Below, in pieces: positions 1,812 to 56,170 of a stretch of DNA of 64,000 nt. Every line of letters begins with the position of its first letter. The first letter of the stretch is position 1. The position numbers and the translations under genes were made by a program. The notes under the pieces were generated by a model. The model was not told the DNA's origin and did no database searches. It saw nothing but the letters and a program-made list of their open reading frames with translations. Source of the DNA: Candidatus Yanofskybacteria bacterium. Lineage in GTDB: Bacteria; Patescibacteriota; Minisyncoccia; JACQLN01. The stretch covers positions 22,466 through 86,465 of the forward strand of contig CALRHC010000001.1 in assembly GCA_943359335.1 (NCBI GenBank), given 5' to 3'.

Positions 1812-1842
1812 ATAAAAGCTTAAAAGTTAATACTTAATCAAA

Positions 1843-2874
1843 ATGGTCAAGTTTGATATCAAAAAAATTGTTAGCCGATTAGTAGATAACCTATCGGACC
1901 GCTCAAAGGACATAATCTTGTCCCGATTTGGCATTGGTAAAGATGACTACGATACCCTAGAAGCTATAGGGCAACGCTATGGCATTACTCGTGAAAGGGT
2001 TAGACAGATAGAAGCCGACGCTTTAAAGCATATTAAAAGTGCTTCTAATGAATCTATTATAAAACCGGTAATAACTGTTTTAAATGAATTCATAAAATCT
2101 AACGGTGGTGTTATGGATGAAAATGATCTAAAAGCTAGTTTTGCTTCTAATCATTTTGAAACAAAGCCAGAACCTACAAATAAGTACGAAGGCGCTACAA
2201 TGTTTTTCTTAAACTTGGCGGGTTCATTTGTTAGAACAAAAGAAGACGAAAATTTTTGGCCTCGCTGGGCATTAGAAAATTCTTATGTAAAAAACCAAGA
2301 AGCTTTGGTTGCTCATTTAACTGGTCAATTAAAAAAAGAAAAGAAAGTTGTTGGTTTTGAAGAAATGATTAATTGGGCCAAAAAACATAATACTGTTTTA
2401 AACAAAGATATTGTTTTGGCTTACTTAGCTTCTGCTAAAAATATTTCTAAAAATTCTTTTAGTGAATGGGGAATGATTTCTTGGGCAGAAGTTTCTCCTC
2501 GCGGTGTTCGTGACAAAGCCTACTTGGTAATGAAGCGCACGCAAAAGCCTATGCACTTTACAGAAGTTGCAGGCGAAATTAACAAAGCCAGTTTTTCTAA
2601 ACGCGTAGCTTTGCCTCAAACAGTTCACAATGAACTTATTAAAGATGGTAGATTCGTTTTGGTTGGCCGTGGTTTGTATGCTCTAAAAGATTGGGGTTAC
2701 GAAGCTGGCACAGTTAAAGATGTAATCAAAAGCGTACTTGCAGCCAAGGGTCCAATGAACCGAGAAGATGTTGTAAAATCTGTTTTGGCTAAGCGTATGG
2801 TAAAACCAAGTACAATTATTTTAAATTTAAACGGTTTTAAAAAGAAAGACGATAACAAGTATTATTTACTCTAA
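1843..2874 (+). CDS. sigma-70 region-4-like HTH domain protein, C-terminal 270 aa of unknown function
   Basis: N-terminus ILSRFGIGKDDYDTLEAIGQRYGITRERVRQIEADALKHIK matches the sigma-70 region 4.2 HTH; rest has no recognisable motif. Confidence 0.5.
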   Translation: MVKFDIKKIVSRLVDNLSDRSKDIILSRFGIGKDDYDTLEAIGQRYGITRERVRQIEADALKHIKSASNESIIKPVITVLNEFIKSNGGVMDENDLKASFASNHFETKPEPTNKYEGATMFFLNLAGSFVRTKEDENFWPRWALENSYVKNQEALVAHLTGQLKKEKKVVGFEEMINWAKKHNTVLNKDIVLAYLASAKNISKNSFSEWGMISWAEVSPRGVRDKAYLVMKRTQKPMHFTEVAGEINKASFSKRVALPQTVHNELIKDGRFVLVGRGLYALKDWGYEAGTVKDVIKSVLAAKGPMNREDVVKSVLAKRMVKPSTIILNLNGFKKKDDNKYYLL

Positions 2875-2987: not shown

Positions 2988-3374
2988 ATGGAAACTCCTT
3001 CCGTTGTAATGAATGAAGTTCAGGGGGAATTGTTTTTATTGAAAATGCTATTGAGTAATCTTAAGGCGGCGGAATTATTTATTTCTGCCGGTGTTGAAAT
3101 GGCGGATGCGTTAGTTGATTTATATCCTGCTGCCGATACAGTAGTTACAGAAAAGATGCGGCCCAAGACAATAGAATTTTTTAGATCGTTCGATAGGTCT
3201 ATGAATGCTCTTTCTAAGGATTTTCCAAAAGACTTAATCAAACAAGTCGAGAGTAGAGTAACTATTTTGGAAAAAACAACTACAGAAGGTTTGATAGATC
3301 AATCATCTAATGTTGGCACAGTACAAGGATCCGGAACTAATATTCATGATCCCGACCATACTGCAGAGTTGTAG
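2988..3374 (+). CDS. hypothetical protein (128 aa)
   Basis: ORF with ATG start 7 nt after an A-rich/GGA region; no recognisable motif; moderately elevated GC. Confidence 0.35.
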   Translation: METPSVVMNEVQGELFLLKMLLSNLKAAELFISAGVEMADALVDLYPAADTVVTEKMRPKTIEFFRSFDRSMNALSKDFPKDLIKQVESRVTILEKTTTEGLIDQSSNVGTVQGSGTNIHDPDHTAEL

Positions 3375-3458
3375 TTACTGTTTCGTCCCTAATAAAATGG
3401 GGACGATTTTTTTGTCTTCAAAAATTAGCCCGAGTAAAATCTAAAAATCACATTATAT

Positions 3459-3487
3459 TTGACATATAGTCAAATATTTGCTTTAAT
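3459..3487 (+). promoter_or_regulatory. sigma-70-type promoter (TTGACA-17-TTTAAT) upstream of lipoprotein gene
   Basis: TATATTTGACATATAG shares a 12-nt core with the promoter at 1783. Confidence 0.4.
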
Positions 3488-3539
3488 TTACACTCGTGTT
3501 CCTTGATTTTTTACTTTAATACCTTAAGTGGAGGTTGCA

Positions 3540-5474
3540 ATGATTCGTCGTCTGCTTTGTCTTTTTGCTATTTTGCTAGGCTTAAACGCCTGCGATAGCA
3601 AACGTGATGCGAACAAGATTTTGTCGCCAAATGTGGATGAAGAAGTGGTGGTCGCCCAAACGGAAAAAGAAGATACATCTTCTTGGGATTTAACCAAGGA
3701 TGTGTCTCTAGATTCTGTGCTGGCTATGCCAGTAGGTACAAAGATGTATTTTCGTACGGCTTTCGTCGGTAAGGTTTTGGAAGATTTCGAAGTCACTTTA
3801 GGTTATGGCAAAGTCGTATATGACCTCACTGCGCCGATGCCAGTGATACACTTGATAGCTTCCGACTCGAGGCTAATCGCTTTGGGTGGAGTATCTCACG
3901 GTATGAGTGGATCCCCAGTTTTTACCAAGGACGGCAAGGTCGGTGCGTTATCCATGAGTTTCGATGAGCAGACTGAGGACAAGAACATTGCTTTTTTTGC
4001 GACGTCGATTGAATGGATGAGGAAGGAAATTCCCAACAAGGAAATCAGGCTGGGTAAGCCGGTGGTTTGGAGGGGGTACATTGTAAGGCCATTGGCTCTT
4101 CCTCTGCTGATGTCTGGCGTTAACAATCATCTGATGAATGCGGCCATTCTCGAATACGCCGACAAACTGGGCGACGGCAATCTCAATATGTTATCGGCAT
4201 CAGGTTCGGCCGGAGCCGGTGGTAATATTGAACAGAAGTTTGAAGATGGTAGCCCGTTGACCGGAGTATTATTTACGGGAGACGAGGTGATCATCGGTGC
4301 CACAGGAACGGCAACCGATGTCCGAGGCAATAACATTTTCGGTTTCGGCCATCCCTGGTGGGGTAACGGGCAGACTTCGTTAGCCATGGTGGCCACCGAA
4401 ATTCTGGCCGAGGTTAGTGGTCCGTCGCCGTTCAAGTTAGCCAGGTTGGGCAATAAGGTTCTTGGGGAAATTATTTACGACCGTATGCCTGGAGTTGGGG
4501 GAGTTTTGGGCCAAATGCCCGAAATGATTCCCTTGGTTTTTAACGCTTCAATTTTTGGCGAGAAGGCGTTAAGCATGAATCATCAAATGTCTCCGGTAGT
4601 TTTATCCGGTTTCGACATGTTCATGCAGGCCATAATGGCCGGTACCACACTTCTTTCTCCTCTGGCCAATAGGCTAGACAATGCCAACGACAAAAGTTTG
4701 ATAGTTCGGACCAAAATCGACTTTAAGGGTTCTAACTTGAAGGTTGATTTTGAAAGGACTTATGCCCAGCCTCATGCTGGTGTATTGGATTTGATGAATG
4801 GTCCTTTGTTTGGTTTTGTTAATGCCTATTTAGGTTCTGTGGGTAACGATTATGCTGATCTGAAAGTTAGCAACATCCAAATGAATGTGGATGTTGTGGA
4901 CGAACCTTTGTTCGCAATCATACAAGGCTTCGAGGCGGATAGTGTCGTTACCGCTGGTAGTGATTTGCCAGTTAAGATCAGTTTAAGGGTTGGAGCAACT
5001 AAAGACGTCGATCTTAACTTGGCTTTTGCTGTGCCGGATAGTTTTGAGGCCGGCATCTATAGCCTGACGGTGGGTTCACTCGCAGCTTTGGAATATTCTT
5101 CCTATGAACCTTCCGATCCGAGCAAGTTTAAAAATCTGGAAGATGTGTTTGAAGACATCAACGAGGTTGATGGTAGTACCACTTTAAAGCTGGTTTTGTC
5201 TTTCAACGAGCCTTTGCCAGTGGAGGCCCCAGATAGCTTGGTGATTGTTGTGCCTGATACAGTAGTTGTGCCTGCTGATACAGTAAAGGTGGATTCACTG
5301 ATGCCTGTGCCACCACCAGTGATGGGTGGTGGTTCGATTGTGTCCTCACCAGGATTGCTACCTCCTTATCAAGAATCTATTGTCTATAACGATAAAGCCA
5401 GTATGGAAAAAAAGATAGACTGGGTTTTGCAGTATGATACAGGTACGGTTAAGGTGAAGGCGATGAAGAAGTAA
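3540..5474 (+). CDS. exported lipoprotein with SpoIVB/S55-like serine-peptidase motif (GMSGSP...GK.GA) and C-terminal Pro/Val-rich repeats
   Basis: ATG at 3540 preceded by GGAGG (the ORF-track start at 3528 is a GTG inside the SD); signal peptide MIRRLLCLFAILLGLNAC with a lipobox Cys; motif GGVSHGMSGSPVFTKDGKVGALSMSF resembles the catalytic-Ser region of peptidase S55; GC about 45-50% versus about 34% genome. Confidence 0.45.
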   Translation: MIRRLLCLFAILLGLNACDSKRDANKILSPNVDEEVVVAQTEKEDTSSWDLTKDVSLDSVLAMPVGTKMYFRTAFVGKVLEDFEVTLGYGKVVYDLTAPMPVIHLIASDSRLIALGGVSHGMSGSPVFTKDGKVGALSMSFDEQTEDKNIAFFATSIEWMRKEIPNKEIRLGKPVVWRGYIVRPLALPLLMSGVNNHLMNAAILEYADKLGDGNLNMLSASGSAGAGGNIEQKFEDGSPLTGVLFTGDEVIIGATGTATDVRGNNIFGFGHPWWGNGQTSLAMVATEILAEVSGPSPFKLARLGNKVLGEIIYDRMPGVGGVLGQMPEMIPLVFNASIFGEKALSMNHQMSPVVLSGFDMFMQAIMAGTTLLSPLANRLDNANDKSLIVRTKIDFKGSNLKVDFERTYAQPHAGVLDLMNGPLFGFVNAYLGSVGNDYADLKVSNIQMNVDVVDEPLFAIIQGFEADSVVTAGSDLPVKISLRVGATKDVDLNLAFAVPDSFEAGIYSLTVGSLAALEYSSYEPSDPSKFKNLEDVFEDINEVDGSTTLKLVLSFNEPLPVEAPDSLVIVVPDTVVVPADTVKVDSLMPVPPPVMGGGSIVSSPGLLPPYQESIVYNDKASMEKKIDWVLQYDTGTVKVKAMKK

Positions 5475-25211: not shown

Positions 25212-26462
25212 ATGCGTTACTCTCAATCGTTTATAAATACTCGTCGGGACGATCCAAAGGACGAAACAGCCACAAATGCTCGTTTGTTAATTCGTGGTGG
25301 TTTTATAGACAAGCTTATGGCTGGTTCTTACACCTTCCTGCCTTTAGGTTGGCGGGTTTATCAAAAAATAGAACAGATTGTTCGCGAAGAAATGAATGCT
25401 GTTGGTAGTGGCGAAATTTTAATGCCACTGCTTCATCCACGCGATGTTTGGAATGAGACTGGTCGCTGGGCGGATCCAAACGTTAAACAGATAATGTATC
25501 AGTTTAAATCCGTAGATGAAAAAGAATATGGACTTTCGTTTACACACGAAGAAATATTTTTAGATGTTGTTCGCAAAAATTCTTTAAGTTACAAGAATTT
25601 ACCAATAAAGCTTTATCATTTTTCTACCAAGTTTAGAAACGAACCTCGGGCGAAATCTGGTTTATTGCGTGGCCGTGAATTTATAATGAAAGATTTATAT
25701 AGCTTGCACGCTACTCAAGACGATTTAGATAAATTTTATTGGGAAGTTAAAGATGCATACTTACGTGTGTTTGATCGGGTTGGATTAAAAGATGTTAAGG
25801 TGGTTGAAGCTTCGGGTGGAGTTTTTACTTCTGGGCATACACACGAATTTCAGCTAGTAAGCCCAGTAGGTGAAGATAATATTTATTTTTGCGATAAATG
25901 TGATTGGGCACAAAACAAAGAAATTTATACACATAAAATTGGCGAAGCTTGCCCAAAGTGTGGCGGACAAGTTGAAGAAGCAAGCTCCATTGAAGTTGGA
26001 AATATTTTTAGATTTGGTACGGTATATTCCGAAAAAATGGGAATTAATTTTAAAGATTCCGATGGTAAAGATAATCCACCATATTTAGGTAGTTATGGTA
26101 TAGGTATGAGCCGTTTGGTTGGAGTTTTGGCCGAAGTATTTAATGATGAAGCTGGAATGAAGTGGCCAAAAAGTGTGGCTCCATTTTTGATCCACCTTAC
26201 TTTTTTGGGTGGCGCTAAAGATGAAGCCGAAAAATTATATAAATCTTTAGCCCAAAAGAATATGGATGTTTTATGGGATGATCGCGAAGAGTCTGCTGGA
26301 GTAAAGTTGTCGGATGCAGATTTAATTGGTATTCCTTATAGAGTAATTGTTAGCGATAAAACTTTGGCTAAAGATAGTGTAGAAATAAAAGAAAGAGGTA
26401 GTGATAAAGTAGAGATGGTTAAATTGGATGAATTGTCTTCTTGGTTGGAAAGGTTAGAGTAG
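25212..26462 (+). CDS. proS: proline--tRNA ligase, short form without the INS editing domain
   Basis: Class-II motifs (FRNEPRAKSGLLRGREF, GYGIGMSRL), anticodon-binding C-domain; CxxC-x18-CxxC insert CDKCDW...CPKCGG. Confidence 0.8.
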   Translation: MRYSQSFINTRRDDPKDETATNARLLIRGGFIDKLMAGSYTFLPLGWRVYQKIEQIVREEMNAVGSGEILMPLLHPRDVWNETGRWADPNVKQIMYQFKSVDEKEYGLSFTHEEIFLDVVRKNSLSYKNLPIKLYHFSTKFRNEPRAKSGLLRGREFIMKDLYSLHATQDDLDKFYWEVKDAYLRVFDRVGLKDVKVVEASGGVFTSGHTHEFQLVSPVGEDNIYFCDKCDWAQNKEIYTHKIGEACPKCGGQVEEASSIEVGNIFRFGTVYSEKMGINFKDSDGKDNPPYLGSYGIGMSRLVGVLAEVFNDEAGMKWPKSVAPFLIHLTFLGGAKDEAEKLYKSLAQKNMDVLWDDREESAGVKLSDADLIGIPYRVIVSDKTLAKDSVEIKERGSDKVEMVKLDELSSWLERLE

Positions 26463-30001: not shown

Positions 30002-30002
30002 A

Positions 30003-30037
30003 AATCCCGCTTAGCGTTTTTGCCTAGCGGGATTTGT
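30003..30037. terminator. bidirectional terminator hairpin AAATCCCGCTTAGCG-TTTTT-GCCTAGCGGGATTT
   Basis: Imperfect 12-bp stem with flanking A/T runs between convergent transcripts. Confidence 0.6.
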
Positions 30038-30041
30038 TTGT

Positions 30042-30158
30042 GGCGACAGAGCTGTGTAGCAGTGACCCGACGTTTCCGTCAACGCCTAAGGTGGGCTGAG
30101 CACTGAACTACAAGAAATTCCTACTTATGGAATTTCTCCTTTCGGCAACTCTGCCGCC
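30042..30158 (-). ncRNA. unassigned structured small RNA (about 117 nt, three stems)
   Basis: On the minus strand: 10-bp closing helix GGCGGCAGAG/CUCUGUCGCC (G·U on minus, A-C mismatch on plus), perfect 9-bp hairpin AGAAAUUCC-AUAAGUA-GGAAUUUCU, third arm UGUAG..CAGUG..GACG-GAAA-CGUC..CACUG..CUACA with a GNRA loop; no ORF; lies 3' of the two tRNAs. Confidence 0.45.
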
Positions 30159-30169
30159 GGTATAATTTT

Positions 30170-30250
30170 TGGTGGGGGCAGCGGGATTTGAACCCACGAC
30201 CTACCGATTGGCAATCGGTAGCTCTTCCTACATATCTGAGCTATGCCCCC
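30170..30250 (-). tRNA. tRNA-Gly (anticodon GCC), CCA encoded, unusually long 13-nt D-loop
   Basis: Hand fold: acceptor GGGGGCA/UGCCCCC, anticodon arm ACCGA-UUGCCAA-UCGGU, T-arm GUGGG-UUCAAAU-CCCGC, 3' ACCA. Confidence 0.7.
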
Positions 30251-30260
30251 ACGCAAAATT

Positions 30261-30336
30261 TGGCTGTGCCCCAGGGAGTCGAACCCCGATAGCCTCCTCG
30301 TTTAGAGGTGGTGTCCTGCCATTGAACGAGGGCACA
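30261..30336 (-). tRNA. tRNA of unresolved identity with non-canonical anticodon arm (19 nt in place of 17)
   Basis: Acceptor UGUGCCC/GGGCACA (U1-A72), D-arm GUUC-AAUGGCA-GGAC, T-arm CGGGG-UUCGACU-CCCUG, encoded GCCA; anticodon region CCACCUCUAAACGAGGAGG folds only as an imperfect stem with a 5-, 7- (CUAAACG) or 9-nt loop. Confidence 0.5.
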
Positions 30337-30412
30337 GCACAGAAAAGATCTGGGTAGTAATTTAGCAATTACCTAAAAAACTGTCAATTCTTCTTTTGTA
30401 AGCTATTTTTCT

Positions 30413-55687: not shown

Positions 55688-55727
55688 CAAAACATCCAGC
55701 TCGCCTAGAGAGCTGGATGTTTTTGTT
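55688..55727. terminator. bidirectional terminator AACATCCAGCTC-GCCTAGA-GAGCTGGATGTT with A-run/T-run; 3' end of both rnhA (+) and rnpB (-)
   Basis: 12-bp perfect stem; core CCAGCT...CCTAGA...AGCTGG repeated at 56221. Confidence 0.7.
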
Positions 55728-56170
55728 AAGAAAGTCGTAAGCCGAATTCTGTCTTGCCTCAACGGCAAGGATAATCATCTGTCTGGGATTGTTATTGCTA
55801 ACAACCTCTGGCGACTCTTCCTTAATAATTTAGATTACTAAGGACACGGTCTTGCACCAAGTGGGGTTTACAACTATTTAGTATTGCTACTAAACAGAAT
55901 CGCGTTTGACGCGACACTTTTCACCTTTAGACTCAATTTTTACATTGAGCTTAGTATAGTCTCTGTTGCATAGGCTCACGGAATCAGCTGTCATCAATGA
56001 ACCTATATCCAATAAAGGACACTTTCCCTGGGCTTGAACCTAATTTTCATTAGATCTGCTCCCGGTTGCATTTCGCAACCACTTGTTTCCTCCGTTTATT
56101 CAACGGATTCGGTGTTCGGACTTTCCTCAATCCATTTTTAGATGAATTGCGATTATCTCACTTTCTTAAC
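55725..56170 (-). ncRNA. rnpB: RNase P RNA (bacterial type)
   Basis: Minus strand carries the universal GAGGAAAGUCCGAACACC (P4 5' strand), ACAGAAUUCGGCUUAC (P4 3' strand) and a perfect P1 GUUAAGAAAGU/ACUUUCUUAAC; minus-strand promoter TTGACT-17-TATCAT at 56205..56177; no ORF of substance. Confidence 0.85.

Follow-up and report, generated by a model that had tools for sequence, protein, structure and literature searches.

Within a 64-kb stretch of the chromosome of a tiny groundwater bacterium of the Patescibacteria (candidate phyla radiation, CPR), hereafter the window, a 76-nt gene on the minus strand (30261–30336) combines a tRNA-Gln-type body and an encoded CCA with an anticodon arm that is not canonical. 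We tentatively favour the reading that this gene is a tRNA-Gln paralogue acting as a non-decoding, selected and expressed tRNA-scaffolded RNA, a functional 'pseudo-tRNA'. The main argument is the constraint on the body while the arm is aberrant, which suggests a functional RNA whose role may be independent of a fixed anticodon. New here are evidence from sequence evolution that the body is constrained while the arm is free, and the clade's island of aberrant tRNA-like genes at this site.

The RNA reads UGUGCCC UC GUUC AAUGGCA GGAC A CCACCUCUAAACGAGGAGG CUAU CGGGG UUCGACU CCCUG GGGCACA G CCA, in which the 7-bp acceptor stem, 4-bp D stem, G18G19, 5-bp T stem, T-loop (UUCRANY), discriminator and CCA are all canonical. 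The anticodon arm, CCACCUCUAAACGAGGAGG (30293–30311, minus strand, from direct reading and folds), has 19 nt versus the canonical 17 nt and can pair in three ways: 5 bp closing the 9-nt loop UCUAAACGA, which includes CUAAA (30298–30306, minus strand); 6 bp closing the 7-nt loop CUAAACG; or 7 bp with an A·A mismatch closing a 5-nt loop, the form that appears within the minimum-free-energy (MFE) cloverleaf. Over the 64 kb, to which all counts of tRNA genes and open reading frames (ORFs) for this host refer, ARAGORN returned only two tRNA genes, both of them minus-strand genes flanked by a 140-codon ORF and ftsK: a tRNA-Gly(GCC) at 30170–30250 and the odd gene at 30261–30336. It solved the latter with five pairs (one of them A·A), the 7-nt loop CUAAACG and a 2-nt junction, giving a non-standard arm labelled 'Phe(aaa)'. 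The standard combination, a 5-bp stem and a 7-nt loop in which position 33 is U and position 37 a purine, cannot be formed, since a 7-nt loop requires a sixth pair or a 2-nt junction, has an A·A mismatch and places C at 37 and G at 38. Direct reading, ARAGORN, Rfam and folds agree on the cloverleaf, the 76-nt length, the GCCA end and the two extra arm nucleotides that the first-pass annotation had described, and folds and ARAGORN reproduce its alternative pairings (5 bp with a 9-nt loop, or 6–7 bp with A·A and a 7- or 5-nt loop). It had also rightly dismissed the ORF at 30169–30357, a mechanical 62-codon reading frame with a TTG start that lies over both tRNAs.

The Rfam tRNA model scores the odd gene at 33.5 bits (gathering score 29; a search over 901 nt gave E = 4.8e-5), and the alignment gives it 8 loop positions versus 6 in the model; in the whole-window Rfam search at the gathering score the gene was not listed, and the Gly gene was the sole tRNA listed. 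A sequence error in the arm, raised by the first-pass annotation, is ruled out because the identical gene occurs in independent ENA (L001) and Logan (L002) assemblies from different samples. A group I intron in the anticodon loop, which needs at least ~200 nt and a core, was rejected as well: the excess is 2 nt, and no intron family matched in Rfam.

A combination of features identifies the odd gene as a tRNA-Gln paralogue: U1–A72, G73, U8–C9, a GUUC/GGAC D stem, the D-loop AAUGGCA (searched as the class AAUGGYA), a 4-nt variable loop of the form xUAU and the T arm CGGGG-UUCGAxU-CCCUG. A search with the D-arm pattern recovered many tRNAs, among which this combination belongs to tRNA-Gln; the tRNA-Gln genes used for comparison came from viral and Patescibacteria-rich metagenome matches, and U1–A72 together with G73 is also found in Patescibacteria tRNA-Gln(UUG) genes. 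With bacterial tRNA-Gln (UUG/CUG; charged via non-discriminating GluRS and GatCAB), the gene has in common U1–A72, G73, U8–C9, the T stem CGGGG/CCCUG, the GUUC/GGAC D stem, the 7-nt D-loop, the 4-nt variable loop and a tRNA-Gly(GCC) neighbour. On groundwater Patescibacteria-type contigs, canonical tRNA-Gln(UUG) reads UGCSGGG UC GUUC AAUGGUA GGAC A CCnnn CUUUGGA nnnGG... and usually adjoins tRNA-Gly(GCC), in an order that is reversed at the window. The odd gene further departs from bacterial tRNA-Gln in its 19-nt rather than 17-nt arm, in a loop that, according to how the arm pairs, has 9, 7 or 5 nt, and in lacking the Gln anticodon YUG (U35, G36), as neither UUG nor CUG is present anywhere in its loop.

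Irregular anticodon arms also occur on tRNA genes from other sources. Two Gln(CUG)-like genes with irregular arms and T arms nearly identical to the window's (L205:962-1038 and L261:376-450) were ruled out as relatives, since they belong to organisms of 56% GC (the window has ~36%). Together with L212, L203 and L242, they show anticodon loops of 8–10 nt or bulged anticodon stems on unrelated, higher-GC metagenome contigs. A separate tRNA from JGI metagenomes (L267:549-603, L210 and L251) has the loop CUUCAAA (UCA) and G73, and is possibly a UGA-decoding tRNA-Trp of an unrelated organism.

The evidence for selection comes from relatives at 80 genome loci, obtained by an FtsK-based scan of genome contigs; the closest FtsK proteins to the window's are named Patescibacteria or Minisyncoccia. 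Among these loci we found one orthologue of the odd gene (L004:260-336), in a sister lineage with ~93–94% identical FtsK, and we consider the two genes orthologous because the alignment extends to the promoter, the 5′ leader and the spacer that separates the gene from the next tRNA. In the body, 3 of 57 positions differ, two of the three forming the compensatory pair U3–A70 to C3–G70, compared with 117 of 294 four-fold degenerate sites of ftsK (39.8%); the body has therefore changed 7–8 times more slowly than the four-fold rate (P = 2.5e-9). By contrast, 7 of 20 alignment columns differ in the arm (six substitutions and one indel), which is about the neutral rate and sets the arm apart from the body (Fisher p = 0.002). 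A second compensatory change, from C31–G39 in the window to U–A in L004, retains the 5-bp anticodon stem, the window's A·A mismatch is U–A in L004, and 97.6% of cells are paired in the comparison. The L004 loop has 10 nt (CACCAAAGGA) versus 9 nt in the window, and the two share no anticodon in one register; ARAGORN accordingly reports 'Trp(cca)' for L004 and 'Phe(aaa)' for the window, in different registers, and both names are annotation artefacts. Because both genes are already aberrant, the constraint acted on the non-canonical form. This one pairwise comparison indicates that the body is under strong purifying selection and that the arm is not.

No further orthologue was found among the 80 FtsK loci or on the contigs of nine FtsK homologues. 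The metagenome pattern scan, whose gap range also admitted canonical tRNAs with a 5-nt variable loop, returned no orthologue and mostly normal tRNA-Gln, tRNA-His and others; of the viral scans, the first was too generic and the second gave no matches.

An arm diverging at about the neutral rate is also what a decaying tRNA-Gln duplicate would show. Under this alternative, which we think somewhat unlikely, a Gly/Gln pair landed behind the ftsK-proximal promoter and the arm was then hit by indels or a template-switch mutation. The patchy presence of the gene among lineages with FtsK 90–94% identical to the window's would fit such a history, as would the fast turnover of the RNA genes at this site, where some relatives carry an IS200-like transposase, and the adjoining Gly(GCC) and Gln(UUG) genes of other Patescibacteria suggest a duplicated cluster. 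Decay is harder to reconcile with the slow body, with compensatory pairs in both the acceptor and the anticodon stem, and with the intact promoter, leader and CCA end; moreover, the non-canonical state is common to both lineages and so is older than their split.

The loop itself carries a recurring motif. All four loops of 9–10 nt in the ftsK-adjacent RNA islands of the window and its relatives contain C-Y-A-A-A: U-CUAAA-CGA in the window, CA-CCAAA-GGA in L004, GG-CCAAA-AC in L272 and AA-CUAAA-CC in L278, on at least three different bodies (Gln-type, Gly-type and others). Defined on the window and L004 pair and then tested on three other non-7-nt loops, the motif was present in two of the three, with a chance P of ~0.0006–0.0017 from a small sample and post hoc. 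It can be read as CYA followed by AA, giving a Trp or amber anticodon; as C33 followed by YAA, giving a Leu UUR anticodon; or as the complement of U33-U34-U35-G36-G37 of tRNA-Gln(UUG). Neither the window nor L004 contains a local antisense target for the loop. An inverted anticodon hairpin, with loops that are the reverse complement of the Gln-like UUURG, was rejected: inversion restores no canonical 7-nt loop.

Codon usage in the window bears on whether such a loop could decode. Stops among the 58 window ORFs are TAA in 40, TAG in 16 (28%) and TGA in 2, with genes densely packed. The TAG that ends proS lies in the reading frame of mreB, which begins two codons further on, and the two would be fused if amber codons were suppressed efficiently. 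At FtsK columns that at least 80% of 99 homologues conserve, window TTA stands opposite L in 19 of 19 cases and TTG in 9 of 10, CAA/CAG opposite Q in 6 of 6 and TGG opposite W in 2 of 2. The window thus uses the standard genetic code, and reassignment of a stop or sense codon is ruled out by the stop usage, the proS–mreB arrangement and the FtsK alignment. The next in-frame stop follows TAG at a median of 3 codons versus 8.5 after TAA, a difference too weak to use. Given the standard codon meanings, efficient reading of UUU, UUR, UGG or UAG by a Gln-type tRNA would be harmful. The earlier suggestion that a UAAA-containing loop might relate to stop, Leu or Phe decoding finds no support in these data, as TAG and TAA are ordinary stops and codons keep their usual meanings.

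We therefore regard a working decoder, whether a weak Gln-type amber suppressor (CUA), a reader of UUR or UUU (YAA/AAA) or a +1/+2 frameshift tRNA with an expanded anticodon such as CUAAA, as quite improbable. In its favour, the acceptor, D and T arms are fully tRNA-competent, U-CUA-AA lies within the loop, and C-Y-A-A-A recurs in 9–10-nt loops arranged 2+5+2. It also counts in its favour that four- or five-base codons can be read by tRNAs engineered to have loops of 8 or 9 nt. Nonetheless, TAG ends more than a quarter of the ORFs, no codon has a non-standard meaning in the FtsK alignment, and the C-Y-A reading would make the orthologue a Trp rather than an amber decoder. Most registers place a base other than U at position 33, the MFE fold closes the loop to 5 nt, and UUUAG and UUUGG would be so common in an AT-rich genome that an active frameshifter would be toxic. 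A frameshift suppressor, another idea of the first-pass annotation, would call for a conserved 8-nt loop with a single extra base; the loops instead have 9 nt in the window and 10 nt in L004, with no common four-base anticodon and no anticodon shared in one register. Nor did the window show a need for recoding in its stops, in proS/mreB or in its FtsK codons. On the side of a decoder, surveyed bacterial tRNA genes do include some with deviant anticodon stems, among them forms with 2 nt more in the loop (PMC13092985).

Under the reading that we favour, a non-decoding tRNA-scaffolded RNA, a strong promoter would drive a small RNA operon with the odd tRNA first, the tRNA-Gly second and a 117-nt structured RNA third. 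The intact acceptor, D and T arms and the encoded CCA would let RNase P and 3′-end enzymes mature a stable L-shaped RNA, the tRNA body thereby supplying transcription-unit placement, processing and stability. The former anticodon arm would be a longer hairpin of 5–7 bp with an A-rich loop of 5–9 nt that could not present a U33-NNN-R37 anticodon; it would vary freely except for its stem and C-Y-A-A-A, and the motif would presumably contact a partner other than a codon. Expression, processing, lack of decoding and the role of the loop motif are all steps that we infer. Of the three ideas in the first-pass annotation, its pseudo-tRNA kept as a processing signal comes closest to this reading, which does not need the gene to serve as a processing signal for the tRNA that follows, because the odd gene is the first behind the conserved promoter.

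Several points weigh against this reading. The selection argument is a single pairwise comparison, as only one true orthologue was found. A canonical tRNA-Gln copy elsewhere in each genome could, through gene conversion, preserve the body without selection at this locus, and such a canonical tRNA-Gln is itself presumed, the host having been read over the 64 kb of the window. The gene is missing from the same site in the equally close lineages L269, L003/L278 and L282, and is therefore dispensable or mobile. The C-Y-A-A-A motif was defined after the data had been seen, and one of the loops that carry it (L278) comes from a predicted fold. Finally, the loop becomes C-U-CUA-A-A, a perfect amber-suppressor loop, when, and only when, C31–G39 is open, which leaves 4 extra nucleotides on the 3′ side.

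A precedent is found in Bacillus, which has non-translational pseudo-tRNAs such as the 'tRNA-Other' of Bacillus cereus, a cloverleaf with an aberrant anticodon that fits no codon and is expressed beside a full canonical tRNA set. The odd gene has in common with it a cloverleaf and an aberrant anticodon region, and differs in lineage, in body and in the kind of argument, which here is evolutionary (constrained body, free arm) rather than experimental. The frameshift suppressors sufD, sufJ and SufB2 and engineered tRNAs with 8–9-nt loops likewise have extra anticodon-loop nucleotides on an otherwise normal tRNA. In sufD, sufJ and SufB2, however, a single extra base stands beside a defined anticodon in mutants of a decoder, whereas the odd arm has two or three extra nucleotides, differs between orthologues and forms a 5-nt loop in its most stable fold. 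The 6-bp anticodon stems of tRNA-Sec, tRNA-Pyl and mitochondrial tRNA-Ser(UCN) resemble one possible fold of the odd gene, 6 bp with a 7-nt loop; unlike these three, it has a 7/5 acceptor/T arrangement and a normal D arm and variable loop, and, compared with tRNA-Sec and tRNA-Pyl, its anticodon is neither UCA nor, in the 6-bp fold, CUA, with no matching recoding.

Departures from the 5-bp anticodon stem are known from natural bacterial tRNA genes. In 42,109 bacterial genomes, 5.6% of tRNA genes have 4-bp anticodon stems, 0.2% of ~1.7 million tRNA genes have stems of 2, 3, 6 or 7 bp, and 'bottom-unpinned' forms with a loop lengthened by 2 nt were noted but not studied (PMC13092985). The odd gene resembles these in its deviant stem. 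By contrast, the surveyed tRNAs keep a 17-nt arm and an anticodon that matches the body, whereas the odd gene has a 19-nt arm and a mismatch between body and loop.

Automatic annotation will enter the odd gene as tRNA-Phe(AAA) and its L004 orthologue as tRNA-Trp. Neither is correct, and in Patescibacteria such entries would distort both the inventory of tRNAs and the inference of the genetic code. To our knowledge, the AAA anticodon is almost never used in bacteria. If the body is indeed selected and the arm is not, the gene would be a natural case of tRNA reuse as a non-decoding scaffold, and in very small genomes every retained RNA is informative.

The odd gene lies in an RNA island that is upstream of ftsK and surrounded by proS, mreB, mreC, ftsK, recA and sigma factor genes. 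About 22 nt upstream of it is a sigma-70 promoter, TTGACA-17-TAAATT with TG before the −10 element (30359–30387, minus strand; 10/12 matches). This promoter and the CTGwTCTTT that follows it are kept before the first RNA gene in L004, L003, L005, L272 and L273, six lineages with the window, and the genes behind it differ between lineages. The window island consists of the odd Gln-like gene, then the tRNA-Gly, then the 117-nt RNA. In L004, the odd Gln-like gene precedes a Gly-type tRNA (L004:111-248, minus strand; GCGGGGG..U73, Rfam 42.6 bits) whose anticodon loop carries a structured insert of ~61–68 nt, far too short for a group I intron.

Other island variants came from contigs inspected for the window's FtsK and nine FtsK homologues. 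The L272 island holds a Gly-type body with the arm CUCCC GGCCAAAAC GGGAG (L272:2277-2355, minus strand). In L273, an 85-nt non-coding RNA (ncRNA) precedes an Asn-type body whose D-loop bears a 22-nt hairpin and whose anticodon loop has 8 nt, and in L282, tRNA-His and the 85-nt ncRNA precede the Asn-type body of L273, which here has ~32 nt inserted in the D-loop and the anticodon loop CUGAUAA. The L270 and L271 islands have tRNA-His followed by a tRNA with a 47-nt D-loop, and those of L003 and L278 have tRNA-His, an ncRNA and a tRNA-like RNA whose anticodon helix is extended and ends in the loop AACUAAACC; the L278 gene (~1838–1945, minus strand) is predicted to combine this 9-nt loop with a D-loop hairpin and an anticodon helix of ~16 bp. 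No tRNA was found at the island site in L269, L274–L277, L006 or L007. The island tRNA-His is canonical, and so the lineage makes no general use of odd loops.

These variants suggest a broader proposal, which we put forward as unlikely on present evidence: the clade may keep a changing set of tRNA-derived, non-decoding RNAs behind one ftsK-adjacent promoter, on Gln, Gly, Asn-like and other scaffolds, with either 9–10-nt C-Y-A-A-A loops or D-loop hairpins, which would make a new class of tRNA-scaffolded functional RNA. That the island RNAs are instead natural tRNAs with five-base anticodons is less likely still. The hairpin D-loops, the ~61–68-nt insert and the structured RNAs of the island suggest that standard tools miss some of the tRNA-like genes of this phylum and misread others, extending what group I introns had already shown there.

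The window's second tRNA gene is the 81-nt tRNA-Gly(GCC) (30170–30250, minus strand; ARAGORN, Rfam 62.6 bits), with a canonical UUGCCAA loop and, as the first-pass annotation had noticed, a 13-nt D-loop, AGAUAUGUAGGAA (30225–30237, minus strand). The extra 6 nt lie in the alpha region between A16 and G18G19, from where, judging by general tRNA structure, extra nucleotides should be able to protrude with the D/T-loop contact intact. The gene has A73 and G2–C71 versus U73 and C2–G71 in canonical Patescibacteria tRNA-Gly(GCC), and by blastn its body resembles Ile/Arg-type tRNAs. A phage origin was rejected, since blastn against phage genomes matched only generic tRNA-Ile and tRNA-Arg bodies, ~75% identical, over the Gly gene; a permuted transfer-messenger RNA was rejected because the weak Rfam match (E = 0.83) covers only the T arm and CCA end of the tRNA-Gly.

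At the same alpha-region site, relatives carry inserts of ~22 to 47 nt, and the window's 13-nt D-loop is the smallest of the series. Genes with such inserts, mostly hairpins, lie at L282:1814-1919, L273:2198-2296 and L270:1399-1516, all on the minus strand. ARAGORN detects only the L273 gene of these, and Rfam misses the L273 and L270 genes, both of which were searched. Two of the insert-bearing genes have an Asn-type body (UCCGCGG...) and the loops CUGAUAA and CCGAGAAG versus CUGUUAA.

Together with the ~61–68-nt anticodon-loop insert of L004, these inserts are what would favour seeing the odd gene as an ordinary decoder with a small, lineage-specific insertion that is removed or tolerated, an explanation we judge very improbable. 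Patescibacteria are known to hide group I introns in their tRNA genes (PMC13011429), a phenomenon different from the odd gene. An excess of two or three nucleotides is much smaller than any known intron, removing any 2 nt from the window's loop yields no Gln anticodon (UUG/CUG), and no bacterial mechanism is known for removing such inserts.

Directly 3′ of the tRNA-Gly, and probably in the same transcription unit, is the 117-nt structured RNA (30042–30158, minus strand), which folds at an MFE of −55.1 kcal/mol (z = −6.7; none of 200 shuffles folds as well) into a long closing helix with three inner hairpins. It matched no Rfam family and is not conserved in L004; identification as signal recognition particle RNA or 6S RNA was rejected, being without Rfam support. 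Beyond it, a hairpin with T-runs on both sides, read from the sequence (30002–30035, no strand assigned), is a probable bidirectional terminator for the RNA operon and the upstream plus-strand ORF; a simple terminator scan made no call here, and homologous hairpins end the island in L278 and L282.

The ~85-nt ncRNA adjoining tRNA-His in relatives (L003:2950-3040, L278:1950-2040, L282:1930-2015 and L273:2300-2385, all on the minus strand) is closed by a helix, GGGGCGUG/CACGCCCY, and contains hairpins with GAAA and GAGA/GAAA tetraloops. One of its stems covaries between lineages, and it has no Rfam match. An IS200/IS605-like Y1 transposase lies between the island promoter and ftsK at L278:2239-2913, L282:2231-2905 and L003 ~3230–3900.

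Elsewhere in the window, a link between the odd gene and a nearby class II aminoacyl-tRNA synthetase gene was considered and rejected, the gene being proS and unrelated. This proS (25212–26462, plus strand) encodes only 416 amino acids, apparently without the INS editing domain. The RNase P RNA of the window is of bacterial class A (55723–56168, minus strand; 145 bits).

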